Source: Candidatus Adlerbacteria bacterium GW2011_GWA1_54_10 (GTDB taxonomy: Bacteria > Patescibacteriota > Minisyncoccia > Phycocordibacterales > SBAW01). Taken from it: 33,870 bases of DNA. Each line of letters begins with the position of its first letter. The first letter of the stretch is position 1. The position numbers were made by a program, and so were the translations under genes. Of the stretch, positions 2,308 through 31,226 are shown piece after piece. The stretch lies in assembly GCA_001004665.1 (NCBI GenBank), contig LCRO01000007.1:1-33870 (forward strand), read 5' to 3'. The notes beneath the pieces are model-generated. The model had not been told where the DNA came from, made no database searches, and was given only the letters and a program-made list of their open reading frames with translations.

Positions 2308-4277
2308 GTCAGCTCGAAATCGAGCTGTCGCATAGCCAGGTCGGCCGCAATCAGGCGCACTCGGACGGAATCTCCGAGTGCGTATTTCTTTTTCTTGCGC
2401 GCTCCGACAAGCGCATATTCTTTTTGTGAATAGTTGTAATAATCGTCTCGGAGAGTGCGTACATGCACAAGACCCTCCGCGGCGCTTTCTTTTTCTTCCA
2501 CGTACAGGCCCCACTCCGTCACGCCGGATATCACGCCGTCGAAAGTTTGTCCTATCTTATCCTGCATGTACTCCACCTGCTTATAGCGGACCGACTCGCG
2601 TTCGGCGTCTACGGCCCTTGCCTCCGCCTCGGATGCCTCGATGCACATTTTTTCGAGGTTGGCATATTCTTTGCGGGTTATAGGCTTACCATTCAGGTGT
2701 GATTCCAATATGCGGTGTGCCAGCATGTCTGGGTAGCGGCGTATCGGCGAGGTAAAGTGGGTGTAATACTCGAATGCGAGCCCGAAGTGCCCGATATTTT
2801 TGGTTGAGTATATCGCCTTTGCCATACTGCGGAGAGTTGCCGTGCGTATAAGGTGCTCCTCCGGCTTGCCTTCTATCTGTTTGAGTAATTTTTGAATGTC
2901 TTTAGTGGAGAATTTTTTCTGCTTATTCTTCCCGAATTCATATCCCACGGCGCGGACGAATGTCGCCAGCTCCTCGATGCGGTCGGACTTCGGTTCGTCA
3001 TGTATGCGGTAAAGAAAGATAAGATTCTTTTCCGGCACGTTTTCCGCGAGCTTGGAAATATAGCTTGCCACCTCGCGGTTAGCGAGCAGCATGAACTCTT
3101 CTATCAGTAAATTAGTCCCCATTCTTTCTTTTCGGCGCACGGACAGTGGCTTGCCGTTTTTATCCAGTTCGAAGTGCACCTCACTGTCGCCGAAGTCTAT
3201 TGCCCCTTCTTTTTCTCTATTCTTGCGCAAGATGCGGGCCAGATTTTGTAATATTAAGAGCTCATTTGCGAAGGTCAGACCTTCGCAAGCTTGCGAAGGT
3301 CTGACCTTCGCATCCGCAGTATCGAGCACCATCTGCGCCTCCTCGTATGTAAACCGCCTGTCGGAGCGGATTACGGATTTTTGGAATTTCCGTCCCAGCA
3401 CTTCGGCGTTTTTATTCATACGAAAGACTGCCGAAAAAGCGAGCCGATCCTCCCCTGGCTTTAGCGACGCCCCCCCCGCCGAGATCTCGTGCGGGAGCAT
3501 TGGAATGGTCGCATCGACGAGGTACACACTGGTGCCGCGGCGCCTCGCCTCGTCGTCTATGGCGGTTCCGGGTCGGCAGAAGAAAGTAGCATCGGCAATA
3601 TGCACGCCGATCTCAAACTCGCCGTTCGGCATCGCTACGCAGGAGAGAGCGTCGTCGAAGTCCTTGGCGTCCGCGGGGTCTATGGTAAAGGTCGGCGTGC
3701 CACGAAAGTCAGTTCGGCGCGCCGCCTCGGACTTAAGGATTTGGTCGTGATCGTGCCCCAGAGCCTGTGCCTCGGCCAAAACATCGGTTGGAAAATCCGT
3801 CCGAAAGCCGTGCTCCAGCACTATGGCGTTCATCTCTACCCTGTGCTCGCCCGCCTTGCCTAAGTGTTCTATTACTGTGCCTTTTGCGGCAATGCCGTCA
3901 AAAAAGTCCAGATGTATCAGAACTTTCTCTCCCTCGGCGAAATCGCGCCCTTTTATCTGTATGGGGCGGTAGAATTTAATATCGTCCGGCTGGACAAAGA
4001 CGGCACCTCGAGAACCCTGTTTTAAGGCGTCGCCTTGAATAATCGTTCCAACAAAATCTTCTTTCGCGCGCGTTATGATTTTTTTGACTTTTCCTTTGGG
4101 ACGGGGAAAAAGCGCCGCAAGTTCCACTTCCACCGTATCGCCGTTAAGAGCGCCCCCCAGGTCATCAGTCCGGATTTCGATGTCTTCTTTATCTTTCTCC
4201 CACGCTACATAACCCACCGCCTTTCGCGTGAGCTCTATGATGCCGGTTATGTGTTTTTTGCCCTTGATATTGCGCAT
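2304..4277 (-). CDS. rnr: Ribonuclease R (RNB + S1 domains)
   Basis: FTIDPADAKDFDDALS catalytic motif, LIEEFMLLAN, HFTSPIRRYPD and a C-terminal S1 domain. Confidence 0.95.
   Translation of the reverse strand: MRNIKGKKHITGIIELTRKAVGYVAWEKDKEDIEIRTDDLGGALNGDTVEVELAALFPRPKGKVKKIITRAKEDFVGTIIQGDALKQGSRGAVFVQPDDIKFYRPIQIKGRDFAEGEKVLIHLDFFDGIAAKGTVIEHLGKAGEHRVEMNAIVLEHGFRTDFPTDVLAEAQALGHDHDQILKSEAARRTDFRGTPTFTIDPADAKDFDDALSCVAMPNGEFEIGVHIADATFFCRPGTAIDDEARRRGTSVYLVDATIPMLPHEISAGGASLKPGEDRLAFSAVFRMNKNAEVLGRKFQKSVIRSDRRFTYEEAQMVLDTADAKVRPSQACEGLTFANELLILQNLARILRKNREKEGAIDFGDSEVHFELDKNGKPLSVRRKERMGTNLLIEEFMLLANREVASYISKLAENVPEKNLIFLYRIHDEPKSDRIEELATFVRAVGYEFGKNKQKKFSTKDIQKLLKQIEGKPEEHLIRTATLRSMAKAIYSTKNIGHFGLAFEYYTHFTSPIRRYPDMLAHRILESHLNGKPITRKEYANLEKMCIEASEAEARAVDAERESVRYKQVEYMQDKIGQTFDGVISGVTEWGLYVEEKESAAEGLVHVRTLRDDYYNYSQKEYALVGARKKKKYALGDSVRVRLIAADLAMRQLDFELT
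3267..3312. repeat. Perfect 46-bp palindrome (inverted REP-like doublet) in frame inside rnr
   Basis: TGCGAAGGTCAGACCTTCGCAAGCTTGCGAAGGTCTGACCTTCGCA equals its own reverse complement. Each half is itself a hairpin. Confidence 0.95.
3996..4038 (-). repeat. REP-like element in frame inside rnr; homologous to 15376-15420 in rpoD
   Basis: Minus strand TCAAGGCGACGCCTTAAAACA matches rpoD TCAAGGCGACACCTTAAAACA at 20 of 21 nt. Confidence 0.8.
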
Positions 4278-4707: not shown

Positions 4708-5064
4708 ATGGCAGAACAAGATCAGGATTTTTTGGAGTTTGTCGTTAAAGGGCTTGTTGATCATCCGGAAAGCATCAAAATCAGCCGCGTTGTGGATGAA
4801 ATGGGCGTGCTTTTGACCCTCGATCTCAATGCCGAGGACATGGGCAAGGTTATAGGCCGCAGTGGCAACACGGCGAAGGCCATCCGCACGCTTTTGCGCG
4901 TAGTGGGAATGAAGAACAATGCGCGCGTCAACCTTAAGATAAACGAGCCCGAGGGCGGCACGCGCGGTTCTGCGGATACCGGATGGGACGGCACGCATGA
5001 GGCGCCCGCCTCTCCCGCGATGAAGTCCGTCGACGAGGCGATGGAGGACCTCTCCAAGTTTTAA
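4708..5064 (+). CDS. khpA: KH-domain RNA-binding protein (KhpA/YlqC family)
   Basis: EDMGKVIGRSGNTAKAIRTLL GxxG KH motif. Conserved position after rpsP. Confidence 0.9.
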   Translation: MAEQDQDFLEFVVKGLVDHPESIKISRVVDEMGVLLTLDLNAEDMGKVIGRSGNTAKAIRTLLRVVGMKNNARVNLKINEPEGGTRGSADTGWDGTHEAPASPAMKSVDEAMEDLSKF

Positions 5065-5179
5065 GCGAAGCAAAAACCAAGTTTGAGAGAATGTTGGTAG
5101 GCGCGACGGCGCCGGACATAGAAAAATTTTCAGCAGAAAATTTTTTGCATTCGGTGCAAACTTGGTTTTTTGCGAAGCG
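5064..5179 (+). repeat. ~115-bp structured repeat, copy 1
   Basis: Terminal inverted arms AAAAACCAAGTTTG/CAAACTTGGTTTTT and an inner hairpin. Aligns to the reverse complement of 20968-21081. Confidence 0.9.
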
Positions 5180-5182
5180 TGT

Positions 5183-5842
5183 ATGAATTTCCATGTAATA
5201 ACGCTTTTTCCGGAGGTTATCGAGGCGTATGCTAATGTCTCGATTTTGGGGCGCGCTCAAAAAGAAAAAAAGATCAAAGTGATTGTGCATCAACTGCGCG
5301 ATTTTGCCGGAAATAAATGGGGCAAGGTGGACGAGAGGCCTTATGGCGGCGGCCCAGGCATGGTCTTGCGTGCGGAGCCTGTAATAAAAGCGGTGCAAAA
5401 GATACTAAAAACTAAAAATCCAAAACTGAAGACTAGGATTATTATCACTTCGGCTGGAGGGAAACCCTTGACCAATGCATACGCAAAGATCCTCGCAAAA
5501 AAACATCAAAATATAATTATAGTGTGCGGGCGATACGAGGGTATAGATGCGCGCGCGAAAAAAGTACTAAAAGCGGATGAGGTCTCGGCCGGACCCTACA
5601 TTTTGACCGGAGGCGAGCTACCGGCGCTCGCCATAGTGGACGCCGCCGCGCGGCAGATACCGGGCGTCCTCGGCAAATTCGAGTCGCTTGAGGAGGGCAG
5701 GGTCGCCAGCCACGACGTTTATACACGTCCGGAGATTCTTAAAGTAAAAGGGAAGTCGTATAGAGTCCCGAAGGTTTTGCTTTCGGGCCATCATGCCAAA
5801 ATAAACGCTCTGCGGCAGAAAAGGCGAAGCGCTCAAAAATGA
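5183..5842 (+). CDS. trmD: tRNA (guanine37-N1)-methyltransferase
   Basis: MNFHVITLFPE, VDERPYGGGPGMVL, CGRYEGIDAR, YILTGGELPA. Start set at ATG 5183. Confidence 0.95.
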   Translation: MNFHVITLFPEVIEAYANVSILGRAQKEKKIKVIVHQLRDFAGNKWGKVDERPYGGGPGMVLRAEPVIKAVQKILKTKNPKLKTRIIITSAGGKPLTNAYAKILAKKHQNIIIVCGRYEGIDARAKKVLKADEVSAGPYILTGGELPALAIVDAAARQIPGVLGKFESLEEGRVASHDVYTRPEILKVKGKSYRVPKVLLSGHHAKINALRQKRRSAQK

Positions 5843-6713: not shown

Positions 6714-13571
<6,858 letters not shown>

Positions 13572-20157: not shown

Positions 20158-20964
20158 ATGCAGGGCTTGTTGAATACGGATATGGCGGCAAAACGATCTT
20201 CTACAGGGCAAGTCCTAAATCTCTACAAAAATCTTGGCGAGACGCCGCGCGAGCGGCTGGAGCGTCTGCGCGGGCGCGAGCGCCATCTGGAGCACGAAGT
20301 CCTGTCTTACGCGGGGCGGCTCGACCCGATGGCCGAGGGGGTGCTCCTTTGTCTTGTGGGCTCCGCCAACAAGCGCCGCGAAGCGTACCTGGAGCTTTCC
20401 AAAGAATACATGCTCGACGTGCTCTTCGGTTTTTCCACGGACACTTACGACATTCTTGGCCGCGTGATGGAGACCGGCGATGGCGGCGGCATTGCGCGTG
20501 AGCGCGTCGTCAAAGTCCTAAATCAGTTCCGCGGCGAACTGTCGCAGCAATATCCGCCATTCTCGTCCAAAGTCGTCGAGGGTAAATCGCTTTTTGAGTG
20601 GGCGCGCAGCAATTCCCTAAGCTCGCTTGTCCTGCCGAGCCGCAGCGTGACAGTTTATGAGATCGCGCTCGAAGGGCTCTACAAAGTAGAAGAGCCGGAT
20701 TTGCTGGCGTATATACAGGAGAATATCGGTAAGGTAAACGGTGATTTTCGGCAGGAAGAAGTGTTGCGTCTTTGGGAGCGGCATCTTAAGGCATCGGGTA
20801 AGAGGAATTTCCCGTGTGCCACCGTCAAAATATCCTGCTCGTCCGGCACTTACGCGCGTTCCATATCTCACGGCCTTGGCGCGGAGCTCGGCATCCCGGC
20901 GCTTACACTCCATCTGCTTCGAACCAAAGTGGGGGATTTCAGCGTCGATAAGTCGCTAAGATAA
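20158..20964 (+). CDS. truB: tRNA pseudouridine(55) synthase-like
   Basis: YAGRLDPMAEGVL catalytic Asp motif, STDTYDILG, YPPFSS, CSSGTYARS and LLRTKVG. An alternative start at ATG 20182 is possible. Confidence 0.85.
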   Translation: MQGLLNTDMAAKRSSTGQVLNLYKNLGETPRERLERLRGRERHLEHEVLSYAGRLDPMAEGVLLCLVGSANKRREAYLELSKEYMLDVLFGFSTDTYDILGRVMETGDGGGIARERVVKVLNQFRGELSQQYPPFSSKVVEGKSLFEWARSNSLSSLVLPSRSVTVYEIALEGLYKVEEPDLLAYIQENIGKVNGDFRQEEVLRLWERHLKASGKRNFPCATVKISCSSGTYARSISHGLGAELGIPALTLHLLRTKVGDFSVDKSLR

Positions 20965-20967
20965 TCG

Positions 20968-21081
20968 GGCTCCGAAAAAATCAAGTTTGCGCCGAACGCG
21001 GAAAATTTTCAGCAGAAAATTTTCCTACTTCCGGTGCCGTCGCGCCCAGAGACTTCTCTCAAACTTGATTTTCGCTTCGCT
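20968..21081 (-). repeat. ~115-bp structured repeat, copy 2
   Basis: Reverse complement aligns with 5064-5179 (about 80% by eye), with compensatory stem changes. Confidence 0.9.
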
Positions 21082-21087
21082 ATCAGC

Positions 21088-22080
21088 TTACCAATCCAGC
21101 TCACCGGTTTTGTATTCCGTAACTCTTGTCTCGAAAAAGTTTTTTTCCTTGGGCATGTCTATTATTTCCGACATCCAAGGGAAAGGATTGTCTTTGTAGT
21201 ACTGCCGAGGAAGGCCGATGCGCTCGAGGCGCCTGTCGGCGACATGCTCGACATACTGCTTTACGGTAGCCGGCACCAGCCCGACTATCCCGCGTGGCAG
21301 AGCGTCATCCACGTAACTTTTTTCCAACTCGACGCCTCGCATGATGTTTTGCGTAAGCTGCTCGCGGAACTGCGGAGTCCATATGGCTGGATTCTCCGCG
21401 ACAATGGTGTTTATAAGGTCGGCACCGAAGGCAAGATGCACCGATTCATCCCGCAAAATAAACTGGAACTGCTCGCCGATGCCGACCATTCGGCCCTTGC
21501 GTAGCATCGAGAGCGCCATTGCGAACCCCGCGTAAAAGAAAATGCCCTCCATTATCACATAGTAGCCAACGAGGTCGTGGACGAACTTCTGTATGTTTTC
21601 CGCGCCCTCTGTACTAAAGCCCGGATCGAACACGCTTCTGGTCATCTCCACGACAAAATCGTCCTTATCCTTTATAGAGGGAGTAGTGTTGTACATGCTG
21701 TATATATCGTCGGGATTCAGGCCGAGCGTGTCGCAACAGTAAATAAAGGTATCGGTATGAACCGCCTCTTCGTACGCCTGACGCAGAAGATATTGCCGGC
21801 ATTCGGGGTTGGTGATGTGCCTGTAAATCGCAAGCACGAGATTGTTTGCAGTAAGCGATTCAGCAGTGGAGAAGAAACCGAGATTCCACATTATCATCCG
21901 GCGCTCGTCCTCGCTTAGGCCGCCCGGCTTCTTCCACAGCTCGACGTCCTGCTGCATTGAGACTTCCTCGGGCACCCAGTTGTTGGCCACGCCTTTTTTG
22001 TAGTGAGTACGCGCCCATGTGTAGCGCATGGGCAAAATTTTGTTCGGGTCCGTCGTCGAAGCTCCGTTTATGACTCCCAT
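21088..22080 (-). CDS. nrdB: Ribonucleotide reductase beta subunit, class Ic (R2c)-type
   Basis: NNWVPEEV, FFSTAES, EEAVHTDTF, MEGIFFY, RDESVH and EKNFFETRV. Start set at ATG 22080, just after the nrdA stop. Confidence 0.95.
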   Translation of the reverse strand: MGVINGASTTDPNKILPMRYTWARTHYKKGVANNWVPEEVSMQQDVELWKKPGGLSEDERRMIMWNLGFFSTAESLTANNLVLAIYRHITNPECRQYLLRQAYEEAVHTDTFIYCCDTLGLNPDDIYSMYNTTPSIKDKDDFVVEMTRSVFDPGFSTEGAENIQKFVHDLVGYYVIMEGIFFYAGFAMALSMLRKGRMVGIGEQFQFILRDESVHLAFGADLINTIVAENPAIWTPQFREQLTQNIMRGVELEKSYVDDALPRGIVGLVPATVKQYVEHVADRRLERIGLPRQYYKDNPFPWMSEIIDMPKEKNFFETRVTEYKTGELDW

Positions 22081-22081
22081 A

Positions 22082-24928
22082 TCAGGCGCTGCAGGACTCA
22101 CAGGGTTCGCTTAATATGTCTATTTTTTGGGCTGACGCGCCCGGATCTTTTGAAACAACGGCGATGGTTTCCTGTATTATCACTGCCGAGGCCACTTCTT
22201 CTCCTAAAATTATGGAGGGCGCGGCAGTCTCATCCGATTTGCTGGTTGCTCCGAATTTAGAGAGATTGACCGTAGACTTCTCTACGCGGCTTGCGCCGAG
22301 CGTGCGCAGGTAGTAAGTAGTCTTGAGGCCAAGGCTCCATGCATACTGGTAAACCTCGGATAGTGCGCGTCCGGAAGTTCCGCTGTAAAAAATATTTAGC
22401 GACTGACTTTGGTCTATCCAGCGCGATCTTGCCGCGGCGGCCTTTATAAGCCATTGAGGCTCTATCTCGAAGGCTTCTTTGTACTTTTCGCGGAGCATGG
22501 GCGGTATCTCCTCAATCTGCTGTATTGAGCCGTCGTGGAATTTTATTTTTTCCAGCATGTCCTTGCCCCATAGACCGAGCTTCTTTAAATCCTCGACAAG
22601 ATACTCGTTGAGGAGCATAAAGTCGCCGGCCATGTTCGATTTAACATACAGATTTTTGTAAATGGGCTCGGTCGTCGGGTAACATCCGACTATGTTGGCA
22701 GTCGAGGCCGTCGGTGCGTTGGCCATCGTGTTGGAATTGCGCATGCCCCACTGCCGTACCGCTTCGCGCACTAGCCTCCAGTCTAGAGTTTCCGCGCGCG
22801 GGAGGTCTATTTTTTGCCCGCGCTCCTGCTCGAGCATAGAAATCGTGTCCTGCGGGAAGATACCGCGGTCCCACTTGGAACCGCCGTAGGTCTCGTAAGT
22901 GCCGCGCTCTTTGGCGAGCAGGGACGAAGAGAGTATCGCGTGATAGGCCATCTGTTCCGCCACGGAGTCGCTGAGACGCACCGCATCCTCGGTATCGAAG
23001 TTGATATCCATTTTGTATAGAGCATCCTGCAAGCCGCGAAGCCCGAGGCCCACCGGCCGGTGGCGCATATTGGAGCGGCGCGTTTCTTCCGTCGGGTAGT
23101 AATTTACGTCCACAACATTGTCGAGCATTCGCATTGCGACGGGCACAATGCGCGCCACGGCCTCGCGGTCGAAGGCGCCGTTTCGCACGAATTGCGCGAG
23201 ATTGAGGCTTCCGAGGTTGCAAACCGCGGTTTCCTGCGCGCTCGAGTTGAGGGTTATTTCCGTGCAGAGGTTGCTGCCGTGCACCACGCCGACATGGTCT
23301 TGCGGCGAGCGGACATTGCAAGGGTCCTTCCATGTTATCCACGGGTGGCCGGTCTCGAAGAGCATTGTCAGATTTTTGCGCCAGAGGTCCTGCGCGCGCA
23401 CCCGCTTGTGATGCAAAATCTCACCCGAGGCCGCCTTTTGCTCGTACGCTATGTATCTCTCCTCGAAGGCCTTGCCGTACAAGTCGTGGAGGTCAGGAAC
23501 ATCGGATGTGGAGAAAAGGGTCCAGTATCCGTCCTCGGCAAGGCGTTTCATGAACAAGTCGGGTATCCACACGGCGGTGCTTAGGTCGTGCGCGCGGCGC
23601 CGCTCGTCGCCCGTGTTCTTGCGGAGTTCCATAAAATCCTCTATATCGAGGTGCCAGTACTCCAGGTACGCCGCCGCGGCGCCGCGTCTGCGGCCTGAGC
23701 GGTTTATCGAGATGGTTACGTCATTGGCTATCTTGAGGAATGGGATCACTCCCTGGCTCTCGACGCCGGTAGTTTTTATGAGCGAGCCGGTTGCGCGTAC
23801 AGGCGTCCAGTCGGTGCCGACGCCTCCGGCATACTTAAGTAGCTGGGCGGAGCTTGCATATTCTTTGAATATTGCATGCAGGTCGTCCGGCACCGTCGAA
23901 AGGAAGCACGAGGAAAGCTGGGGCCGCAGGAGGCCAGCGTGGTATAGCGTGGGCGAGGAGGGAGTGTAATACATCGCCGACATAGCTTCGTAAAATTCTA
24001 TTGCATGGCGCTGGCGCTCCTCCGGAGTCTTTTCGGCAAGAGCGACTCCCATTGCGACGCGCATCCAGAACATTTGCGGGGTTTCAAGCAGTCGGCGGGT
24101 TTTATGCTCGCGCGAAATATAATTCTTCTCCAGCGTCTGCAGTCCCAGGTACTTGAAATCGCGGTCCCTTTCTATCTGCAGAGTCTCGCCGAGGACGGCT
24201 AGGTCATACTCAAGCATTCGCGGGTCGTATTGCCCTATGGAAACTCCTTTCCCCATGGACTCAGCAAACGCGCGCTTGTGCGCCTCCTCCAGATCGGCAT
24301 AATCAACCTTGCCGAGCACGTCGCGGTACATGGATTGCAGAAGGAGCCGCGCGGCAACCAGCGAGTGTGCAGGGTCGCGCTCTATCAAACTGCGCACGAC
24401 CATCACGAGCACGTCGTGGATGTCTTTGGTCTTGATGCTCTCGTACAGCTCGGCGCGCACGCGAGCGATTATTTCGGGCACATCGATATGACGCTCCTGC
24501 CCCAAAGCGGCGCGCAGGAGCGTGCGGGTAAGCTTGCTCTCACTGAAGTTTTCCTTGCGGCCGTCGCGCTTTTCGACAAGGAGGCGGTTTTCCGTTATTT
24601 TTTCGGCAATTTTTGCCTTGTGGTCCTCGCGGACCTTGGCGTGTTCGTAGCGGTAAATAATGTATGACTTCGCGACGTTGAAATAGCCTCGCTCCATGAG
24701 CGCGGTTTCGACCAGGTCCTGTATATTCTCGACCGTCGGGATGAATGCGGTGTTGCCGAATTTAAGGTCTATCGCGTCTACGACCGCCTTTGTAATATCA
24801 ATCGCGTCCTCATCGTGGCTGTCGCCAAGCACCGCCGCAAAGGCCTTTTGTACCGCGACTGTTATCTTTTGCGGATGGAAATCGGCTATTTCGCCGTTCC
24901 GTTTTTTTATTTTTAGCGTCACTGCCAT
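22082..24928 (-). CDS. nrdA: Class I ribonucleotide reductase alpha subunit with two ATP cones
   Basis: IKKRNG and VEKRDG ATP cones, QLSSCF, SNLCTEI, AVCNLGS, LKTTYYLR and C-terminal CESC. Confidence 0.95.
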   Translation of the reverse strand: MAVTLKIKKRNGEIADFHPQKITVAVQKAFAAVLGDSHDEDAIDITKAVVDAIDLKFGNTAFIPTVENIQDLVETALMERGYFNVAKSYIIYRYEHAKVREDHKAKIAEKITENRLLVEKRDGRKENFSESKLTRTLLRAALGQERHIDVPEIIARVRAELYESIKTKDIHDVLVMVVRSLIERDPAHSLVAARLLLQSMYRDVLGKVDYADLEEAHKRAFAESMGKGVSIGQYDPRMLEYDLAVLGETLQIERDRDFKYLGLQTLEKNYISREHKTRRLLETPQMFWMRVAMGVALAEKTPEERQRHAIEFYEAMSAMYYTPSSPTLYHAGLLRPQLSSCFLSTVPDDLHAIFKEYASSAQLLKYAGGVGTDWTPVRATGSLIKTTGVESQGVIPFLKIANDVTISINRSGRRRGAAAAYLEYWHLDIEDFMELRKNTGDERRRAHDLSTAVWIPDLFMKRLAEDGYWTLFSTSDVPDLHDLYGKAFEERYIAYEQKAASGEILHHKRVRAQDLWRKNLTMLFETGHPWITWKDPCNVRSPQDHVGVVHGSNLCTEITLNSSAQETAVCNLGSLNLAQFVRNGAFDREAVARIVPVAMRMLDNVVDVNYYPTEETRRSNMRHRPVGLGLRGLQDALYKMDINFDTEDAVRLSDSVAEQMAYHAILSSSLLAKERGTYETYGGSKWDRGIFPQDTISMLEQERGQKIDLPRAETLDWRLVREAVRQWGMRNSNTMANAPTASTANIVGCYPTTEPIYKNLYVKSNMAGDFMLLNEYLVEDLKKLGLWGKDMLEKIKFHDGSIQQIEEIPPMLREKYKEAFEIEPQWLIKAAAARSRWIDQSQSLNIFYSGTSGRALSEVYQYAWSLGLKTTYYLRTLGASRVEKSTVNLSKFGATSKSDETAAPSIILGEEVASAVIIQETIAVVSKDPGASAQKIDILSEPCESCSA

Positions 24929-30470: not shown

Positions 30471-30488
30471 ATCGCGAGTATCTAGAGG

Positions 30489-30515
30489 TTGTCTAGAGGT
30501 GACACCTCTAGACAA
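30489..30515. repeat. Palindrome at the 3' end of the RAYT gene
   Basis: TTGTCTAGAGGTG-A-CACCTCTAGACAA, with an extra half copy TCTAGAGGT at 30481. It contains the transposase stop codon. Confidence 0.95.
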
Positions 30516-31185
30516 GCGTTGGGGTGCGCGTACGGTAGAATTCCTGAGCATTACAAAGCATTTCAGTAAAATCGGGATTTGGATAAAATTCTCGCAACAT
30601 ATTACCGGTTATCGCACCCTCCGGCCGATTTTGGCCAAAAAAATCAATAAGGCTGGAATATTGATATTGAAACAATTTATTTTCAATTTTTTTTAATTCG
30701 CCGCTTCCGGTTTTCCATTGAGGTTCGAAAAGCTCTATCGGATTAAACAGCACATATGGCACGACTTGCTTGAAGTAAATATTGTCGGAAATATGCTTTG
30801 AGCGAAAAGGCTTTACAAACAAATTACCCACCCTTGCCCTTTTTACATTGAAGTACATCGTATAACCAGTGCTGAGCTTACGCATGAATTTTGTTATTCC
30901 TCCTTCTGTCAAGGCTTTTAAAATCAAATGAAAATGAGATGGCATCAGGCAGTAGGCTCCTATTGCAACAATAAGCTCTTTTCTGGGTAAGGATAATATT
31001 TCTTCGTGAGTTATGTCGCGATCAAAAGAACTGCGCTCGACAGGGGCAACATTATTGGCCAGATAAAGCATCTGTGTAAAACGCAAATAATCACTTGTTG
31101 TCTCAAAGACTTTTCTTTTTTCGACTCCGCGGCTATAGCAATGGAACCATTCATTAGGAGCAAGGGGAATACGCCGGTAGGTCAC
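30508..31185 (-). mobile_element. Y1 HUH transposase, REP-associated (RAYT)-like
   Basis: FHCYSRGVEKR, YCLMPSHFHL (HUH), YFN...GNLF..PF, YVLFNP (catalytic Tyr) and YSS. Visibly more AT-rich than its neighbours. Confidence 0.9.
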
Positions 31186-31200
31186 AAGGTAAGTATACCC

Positions 31201-31222
31201 TGTCTAGAGGTGACACCTCTAG
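31201..31222. repeat. Palindrome at the 5' end of the RAYT gene
   Basis: TGTCTAGAGGTGACACCTCTAG is identical to 30490-30511. Confidence 0.95.
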
Positions 31223-31226
31223 GTGC

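Follow-up and report, generated by a model that had tools for sequence, protein, structure and literature searches.

A probably mobile three-way-junction repeat at gene ends and in frame within genes of Patescibacteria

Introduction

Several systems of short folded repeats have been described in bacteria. The RPE of Rickettsia, a bacterium with a reduced genome, are dispersed repeats of 100-150 nt that fold and lie in frame in unrelated housekeeping genes (PMC10969869). The REP/REPIN repeats associated with RAYT and the CGTC/SRM repeats associated with the GIY-YIG protein Ssn are strand-asymmetric hairpins with GA-rich motifs, found near stop codons and sometimes in genes (PMC3733652, PMC11893778). 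GA-rich motifs and in-frame copies are thus features of REP/RPE-type repeats (PMC3733652, PMC10969869). Finally, bacterial MITEs such as Correia, RUP, and ERIC are short, non-coding, able to form stem-loops, and located near coding ends (PMC10969869).

Here we describe a repeat family found in a 33,870-nt stretch of a Patescibacteria genome (the window), which resembles each of these systems in part. It also recalls folded single-strand recombination sites, namely integron attC and the attP of CTXphi, where exchange of one strand would leave a layout of the type X ... inverted X - head - X.

The two copies in the window

Copy 1 (5065..5178, + strand) fills the gap between khpA (4708..5064, +; PF13083) and trmD (5183..5842, +; PF01746). 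It starts at the first base past the khpA stop, and trmD begins 4 nt past its end. It scores 104.9 bits with covariance model R1, which was built from 23 copies including copy 1 itself. Copy 2 (20969..21080, - strand; 80.9 bits) lies between the convergent genes nrdB (21088..22101, -; PF00268), 7 bases past the stop of which it starts, and truB (20158..20964, +; PF01509), which ends 4 nt from it. The initial annotation had described a two-copy element with about 80% identity. Both copies are real, with 94 of 114 aligned positions identical (82%; BLAST 83%, E 2e-26 within the genome), but the 596-kb genome holds five full copies by the covariance model. The proximity of both starts to stop codons, a compensatory C-G to T-A change in the outer stem, an A-T to G-C change in the inner stem, and GCGAAGC at the start of both copies and at the end of copy 1, all reported initially, are indeed seen in the sequence.

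In the MFE fold, copy 1 begins with GC and a GAA triplet (5065..5069, +). The GC pairs with 5177-5178 and the GAA faces the GAA at 5174-5176 in a predicted 3x3 purine internal loop. The GCGAAGC motifs had been read as mini-hairpins; such folding is possible, but two facing GNA triplets in an internal loop are the better reading. The 5' arm of the outer stem (5070..5085, +), variable in sequence with complementarity retained, pairs with 5157-5173, within a 3' arm (5157..5178, +) made up of a T tract, the GAA triplet, and the terminal GC. The 5' strand of the inner stem (5089..5094, +) pairs with 5147-5152 and closes at the junction with a T.G pair (5094/5147) that is near-invariant in the family. 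Branch 1 (5095..5118, +) carries a short stem, a GTA/GGA internal loop, and the hairpin GGCGC-GACG-GCGCC (5100-5113). This central hairpin, unmentioned in the initial annotation, turns the fold into a three-way junction. Branch 2 (5121..5146, +) is an A/T-rich hairpin with an AGCA loop (5132-5135). Fold z-scores are -5.3 as RNA and -6.3 as DNA for copy 1, and weaker for copy 2 (-2.5 and -4.2). Copy 2 looks partly decayed: its branch 1 GC hairpin has one C.A mismatch and its branch 2 loop is inverted to TGCT. This inversion, also reported initially, is rare, as TGCT occurs in 1 of 107 distinct copies of the family and AGCA in 86.

Other features of the window were also recorded. A perfect 46-nt palindrome (3267-3312), made of two inverted units of the AGG-TCAG-ACCT type, lies in frame in the RNase R gene and belongs to a different repeat family. 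A 225-aa Y1/RAYT-like ORF (30508-31185, -; PF01797 E 3e-4, under the cut-off) has AGG-TGAC-ACCT palindromes on both sides (30480-31225), a REPtron-like layout with a repeat that differs from the present family; these palindromes may be related to the RNase R insert. A single 2285-aa ORF (6714-13571) is, from its motifs, presumably a fused rpoB-rpoC.

Fold and covariation

Family members have a stem of 20-25 bp that is closed by a terminal GC pair plus a GNA/GNA internal loop and frequently bulges on its 3' side. The terminal GNA/GNA loops are common and often swapped for a perfect inverted repeat. Among the 107 distinct copies, the T.G pair at the junction is found in 99, and the GACG loop of the GC hairpin, behind a GA-rich internal loop, in 80. 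In an alignment of these copies fitted to the covariance model, all 44 model pairs covary with changes on both sides, and the GACG hairpin does so at all five of its pairs; 88.9% of cells are paired, vs. 59.2% after shuffling and 36-51% with slid partners. With MAFFT alone, in an alignment of 30 copies, covariation is again seen at 15 of 15 predicted pairs. The covariation first proposed from two copies holds with more of them.

G.T pairs are more frequent than A.C pairs (261 vs. 73, or 161 vs. 73 with the invariant pair removed), and G.A more frequent than T.C (248 vs. 96). Because G.T outnumbers A.C, one strand appears to be the folded strand. Which strand is favoured does not depend on host transcription, and it varies along long contigs.

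Within-genome subfamilies have heads 88-90% identical and arms 46-60% identical, and the diverged arms still pair, in 149 of 149 and 83 of 84 arm cells. We take paired, fast-changing arms, replacement of GNA/GNA by an inverted repeat, and a flipped loop to be marks of template switching at DNA hairpins (quasi-palindrome correction), a process able to produce covariation in the absence of selection. Some of the covariation may thus be mechanical rather than selected, and near-perfect covariation in this family need not imply a functional RNA.

Distribution of the family

Family matches were found by BLAST in 25 of 61 relatives. A scan of the order with R1, in which 25 candidates were scored per genome, gave at least 337 matches in at least 59 of 151 genomes, with 1-32 copies per carrier at unrelated sites; three genomes had 32, 20, and 19 copies after rescoring. 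In a phylum-wide draw, the family was present in 3 of 151 genomes, this one among them. Across the genome collection, a core pattern matched 118 loci (about 280 estimated), none in a record titled outside Patescibacteria or unclassified bacteria, and viral contigs gave 0 core-pattern matches. As to Rfam, a check suggested at the outset, there was no hit at either window copy (E<=5), nor any above the gathering score at the copies of 15 further family loci. No published description of the family was found in the literature searched, which included few subscription papers.

This genome (G000) also carries diverged structured inserts missed by R1 (C2:21460-21580, C6:52300-52420, C5:32200-32300, C4:32500-32650, C5:6141-6247). 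The hosts of the in-frame inserts are mnmA, tsaD, recG, and a parB-like gene; one further copy has GCGAAGC ends. The in-frame ones are more diverged and at the same loops, and two have the same architecture. At L297:1242-1384, a second, REP-like hairpin is nested within the AGCA loop of a family member.

Empty sites and in-frame copies

The initial annotation had proposed looking for empty sites in relatives, and both empty and independently refilled sites are found. Between khpA and trmD, the gap is at most 10 nt in 10 of 26 relatives, other family members directly follow the stop, oriented the opposite way, in 4 of the 26, and remnants are discernible by eye in 2 more. In a khpA+trmD tree of 27 rows with a weak backbone, carriers are scattered, several adjoining non-carriers with good support. 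Alternatively, such scatter could reflect repeated losses of an old copy; two of the 'empty' khpA sites retain a short stretch resembling the element end. After nrdB, one of 29 relatives has a clear copy, in antisense. Six relatives (L181, L187, L188, L189, L202, L206) have a short palindrome of the CCCTGAGC-GNA-GTCGAAGGG type right past the nrdB stop. A strain-level empty allele of copy 1 was not seen in four low-share DNA runs, none spanning the whole stretch.

Members of the family are also found within coding sequences. In recJ, a spacer that measures 4 residues in 4 of 5 relatives, and is an unrelated 15 residues in the fifth, corresponds in this genome to 34 residues, about 30 of them added by the element. 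Overall, 11 of 168 shell-less dispersed copies lie in frame inside ORFs, 8 in antisense and 3 in sense, in hosts that include recJ, mnmA, recG, ksgA (twice), and tsaD. Two ksgA records have the element at the same site but in opposite orientations, in frame either way. As with RPE, the insertions thus affect unrelated protein-coding genes. Unlike RPE, the family is mostly intergenic, both of its orientations are read in frame, and it has a conserved three-way-junction head on a hypervariable stem with no terminal CGTC tag.

A search covering genes with a homologue in this genome found no frame-breaking genic copy, which argues against splicing; a self-splicing element was therefore set aside, all genic copies found being in frame and most antisense. 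We discarded four tblastn spans or splits (L001, L013, L105, L372) that proved to be spurious antisense frames. That families recur at the same gene junctions was given no weight, because chance could give it.

The repeat is thus very probably mobile in some form. The initial idea of an undescribed mobile structured repeat family agrees with the covariation, the multiple copies, the empty sites, and the Rfam result.

Flanks and the tRNA-tail form

Dispersed copies leave no target duplication: in 163 shell-less copies, direct flank matches average 3.61 nt, vs. 3.51 nt in shuffled pairings. Inverted similarity between flanks is in excess (20 vs. 6.4 at >=6 nt). Dispersed arms were also considered as direct copies of local flanks, and the flank test was not supportive. 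An 8-nt match between an arm of copy 1 and the khpA end is treated as chance or microhomology, since the arm of copy 2 has it as well.

The same two hairpins occur as a 75-nt module behind tRNA and tmRNA genes. This tRNA-tail form was not found in the genome of the window. For 31 of 52 tail-module matches, a tRNA on the same strand is located at most 260 nt upstream. By eye, the arms here derive from the target, with an inverted copy on the left that extends two bases beyond the direct copy on the right; a direct repeat of at least 12 nt is present in 18 of 48 cases vs. 0.6 expected. This arm layout is seen at tRNA, tmRNA, and rplL ends. One such module is located at the rplL end (L422), and a genome outside this class has two in a single tRNA cluster (L450:760-860 and 1332-1440).

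The tRNA-tail relatives show the X ... inverted X - head - X layout, which resembles one-strand integration at attC or CTXphi attP. In contrast to these sites, there is no integrase among the nearby ORFs covered and no R-box or dif consensus, and dispersed copies have no upstream duplicate X. A speculative extension, which we consider rather doubtful, is that the head is a portable recognition module writing its own arms from the target, copied in inverted form on one side and directly on the other. Dispersed repeats, in-frame inserts, and tRNA-tail cassettes would then belong to one protein-less, self-retargeting mobile system, in which a host enzyme acts on a folded single strand.

Search for a mobilizing enzyme

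No mobilizing enzyme was found in searches over the 151 order genomes and neighbouring ORFs. The associated transposase that the initial annotation had suggested looking for did not appear: Pfam revealed no transposase or recombinase among 95 of the 233 distinct ORFs beside dispersed copies (small, non-shell), nor among 60 of the 123 cluster representatives near tRNA-tail copies. These neighbours are mostly housekeeping proteins or have no family, with one LAGLIDADG-type ORF per set.

Y1/RAYT is found in 36 of 59 carriers and 55 of 92 non-carriers (co-occurrence p=1.0), and none of the 10 top-scoring, IS200-like Y1 loci holds a family copy. In contrast to REP and SRM repeats, the family does not flank RAYT or GIY-YIG genes, carries no GTAG/CGTC terminal tag, and is not a doublet of a 20-40-nt unit. 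The REPIN label initially considered does not fit, as alignment A4 has no conserved terminal tag or doublet and there is no RAYT association. GIY-YIG, present in 148 of 151 order genomes, is uninformative because it is near-universal. The SRM/CGTC (Ssn) assignment was rejected, since GIY-YIG loci had a family match in 0 of 30 cases and, in carrier genomes, in 3 of 20, just one of them within 100 nt and on one side. Five high-copy genomes had a serine recombinase in 4, a tyrosine recombinase in 5 (as in all 14 controls), and IS110 in 1.

The sole enzyme signal, a weak one, comes from reverse transcriptase (RT), matched in 31 of 59 carriers vs. 31 of 92 non-carriers (odds ratio 2.2, p 0.028 uncorrected). 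It would suit a SINE-like element copied via RNA by a resident RT of the DGR or intron type, with arms made by fold-back synthesis; the RNA-like conserved T.G pair and ornate junction and the target-derived arms of the tRNA-tail form point the same way. However, no RT was matched in 8 of 18 high-copy genomes, several enzyme families were tested in related genomes, and no tail, 5' truncation, or own promoter was seen. This origin is therefore unlikely, if the best placed of the alternatives.

Position at mRNA 3' ends

Within -25..+20 nt of a stop codon lie 75 of the 168 copies. Many neighbours are highly expressed genes, copy 1 stands where several relatives have a terminator-like hairpin, and junction bases are more conserved than stems. 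All of this could fit a structured RNA selected by the host at mRNA 3' ends (for termination, exonuclease blocking, or translation control) that had spread in the distant past and was kept for its function. However, the strand-specific fold is more often antisense to the adjoining gene: 44 of the 75 copies are antisense, 24 sense, and 7 both (p 0.02 ignoring relatedness). The sense orientation hinted at initially is thus not a rule of the family, which weakens a cis-acting RNA reading. In-frame copies are likewise antisense in 8 of 11 cases, most relatives have no element at either window site, copy 1 shows no terminator or promoter pattern, and Rfam gives no match. We regard a host-selected RNA as improbable, slightly more so than RT-driven copying.

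An insertion sequence-derived shell

Like MITEs, the family is multi-copy and non-coding, with empty sites in relatives. Unlike them, the window copies have no fixed terminal inverted repeats and no target duplication, and their arms differ from copy to copy; they are therefore not canonical MITEs, contrary to one of the initial labels. Fixed terminal inverted repeats shared with an insertion sequence (IS) occur solely in one subfamily, in three genomes (G063, G136, and G076), where a genuine MITE shell surrounds the head. Such repeats enclose 19 near-identical copies in G063, and 9 of the 19 have, by eye, a clean A/T-rich 7-bp target duplication. In G063, a 266-aa PF13612 transposase has these ends on either side, and the IS itself, of about 970 bp, is seen at G063:C20:3941-4911 (L246) and in G136 and G076; we take it to be IS982-like. 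Hairpin cargos captured by the shell number at least four; they are unrelated to one another, and one of them is a CGTC-type REP doublet.

An ordinary MITE of a DDE insertion sequence is very unlikely for the family and holds for the shell subfamily alone, since the head is a cargo of the shell, which takes up other hairpins as well and is empty in one minimal case, and since neither the shell motif nor PF13612 (in 9 of 151 order genomes) is present in this genome and shell-less copies have no target duplication.

Discussion

The most probable explanation is a multi-copy folded repeat that codes for no protein, comes and goes at gene ends, and is found in frame in tolerant protein loops. It likely spreads as a selfish DNA hairpin under the action of an enzyme whose gene lies elsewhere. 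In such a mechanism, one strand would fold into the long stem and three-way junction, and the enzyme would recognize the conserved head through the T.G pair, the GA-rich loops, and the GACG and AGCA loops. The element may enter short palindromes or hairpin-prone sites. Fold-back or template switching would then re-template one arm from the other, so that fast-changing arms stay fully paired, the AGCA loop flips, and flanking bases are drawn into the stem. Copies would persist where they are least harmful, just past stops or in frame in surface loops. By likeness to REP and SRM repeats, a single-stranded DNA substrate is plausible (PMC3733652, PMC11893778).

From this analysis, the family appears to work like a selfish palindromic repeat of the RPE/REP type and does not qualify as a MITE, REPIN, or SRM (PMC10969869, PMC3733652, PMC11893778). 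New here are the finding that dispersed and tRNA-tail members share one head, the shell derived from an IS, and the contrast between head and arms.

About two in five genomes of the order carry this repeat, some of them 20-30 times, even though Patescibacteria are deemed streamlined. Core proteins (RecJ, MnmA, RecG, KsgA, TsaD) gain about 30 residues from it, which has been overlooked in annotation. Finally, the family has many copies and a sharply delimited head, its arms come from the target in one form, and another form has been captured by an IS, so that the question of how RPE-type repeats move becomes testable.
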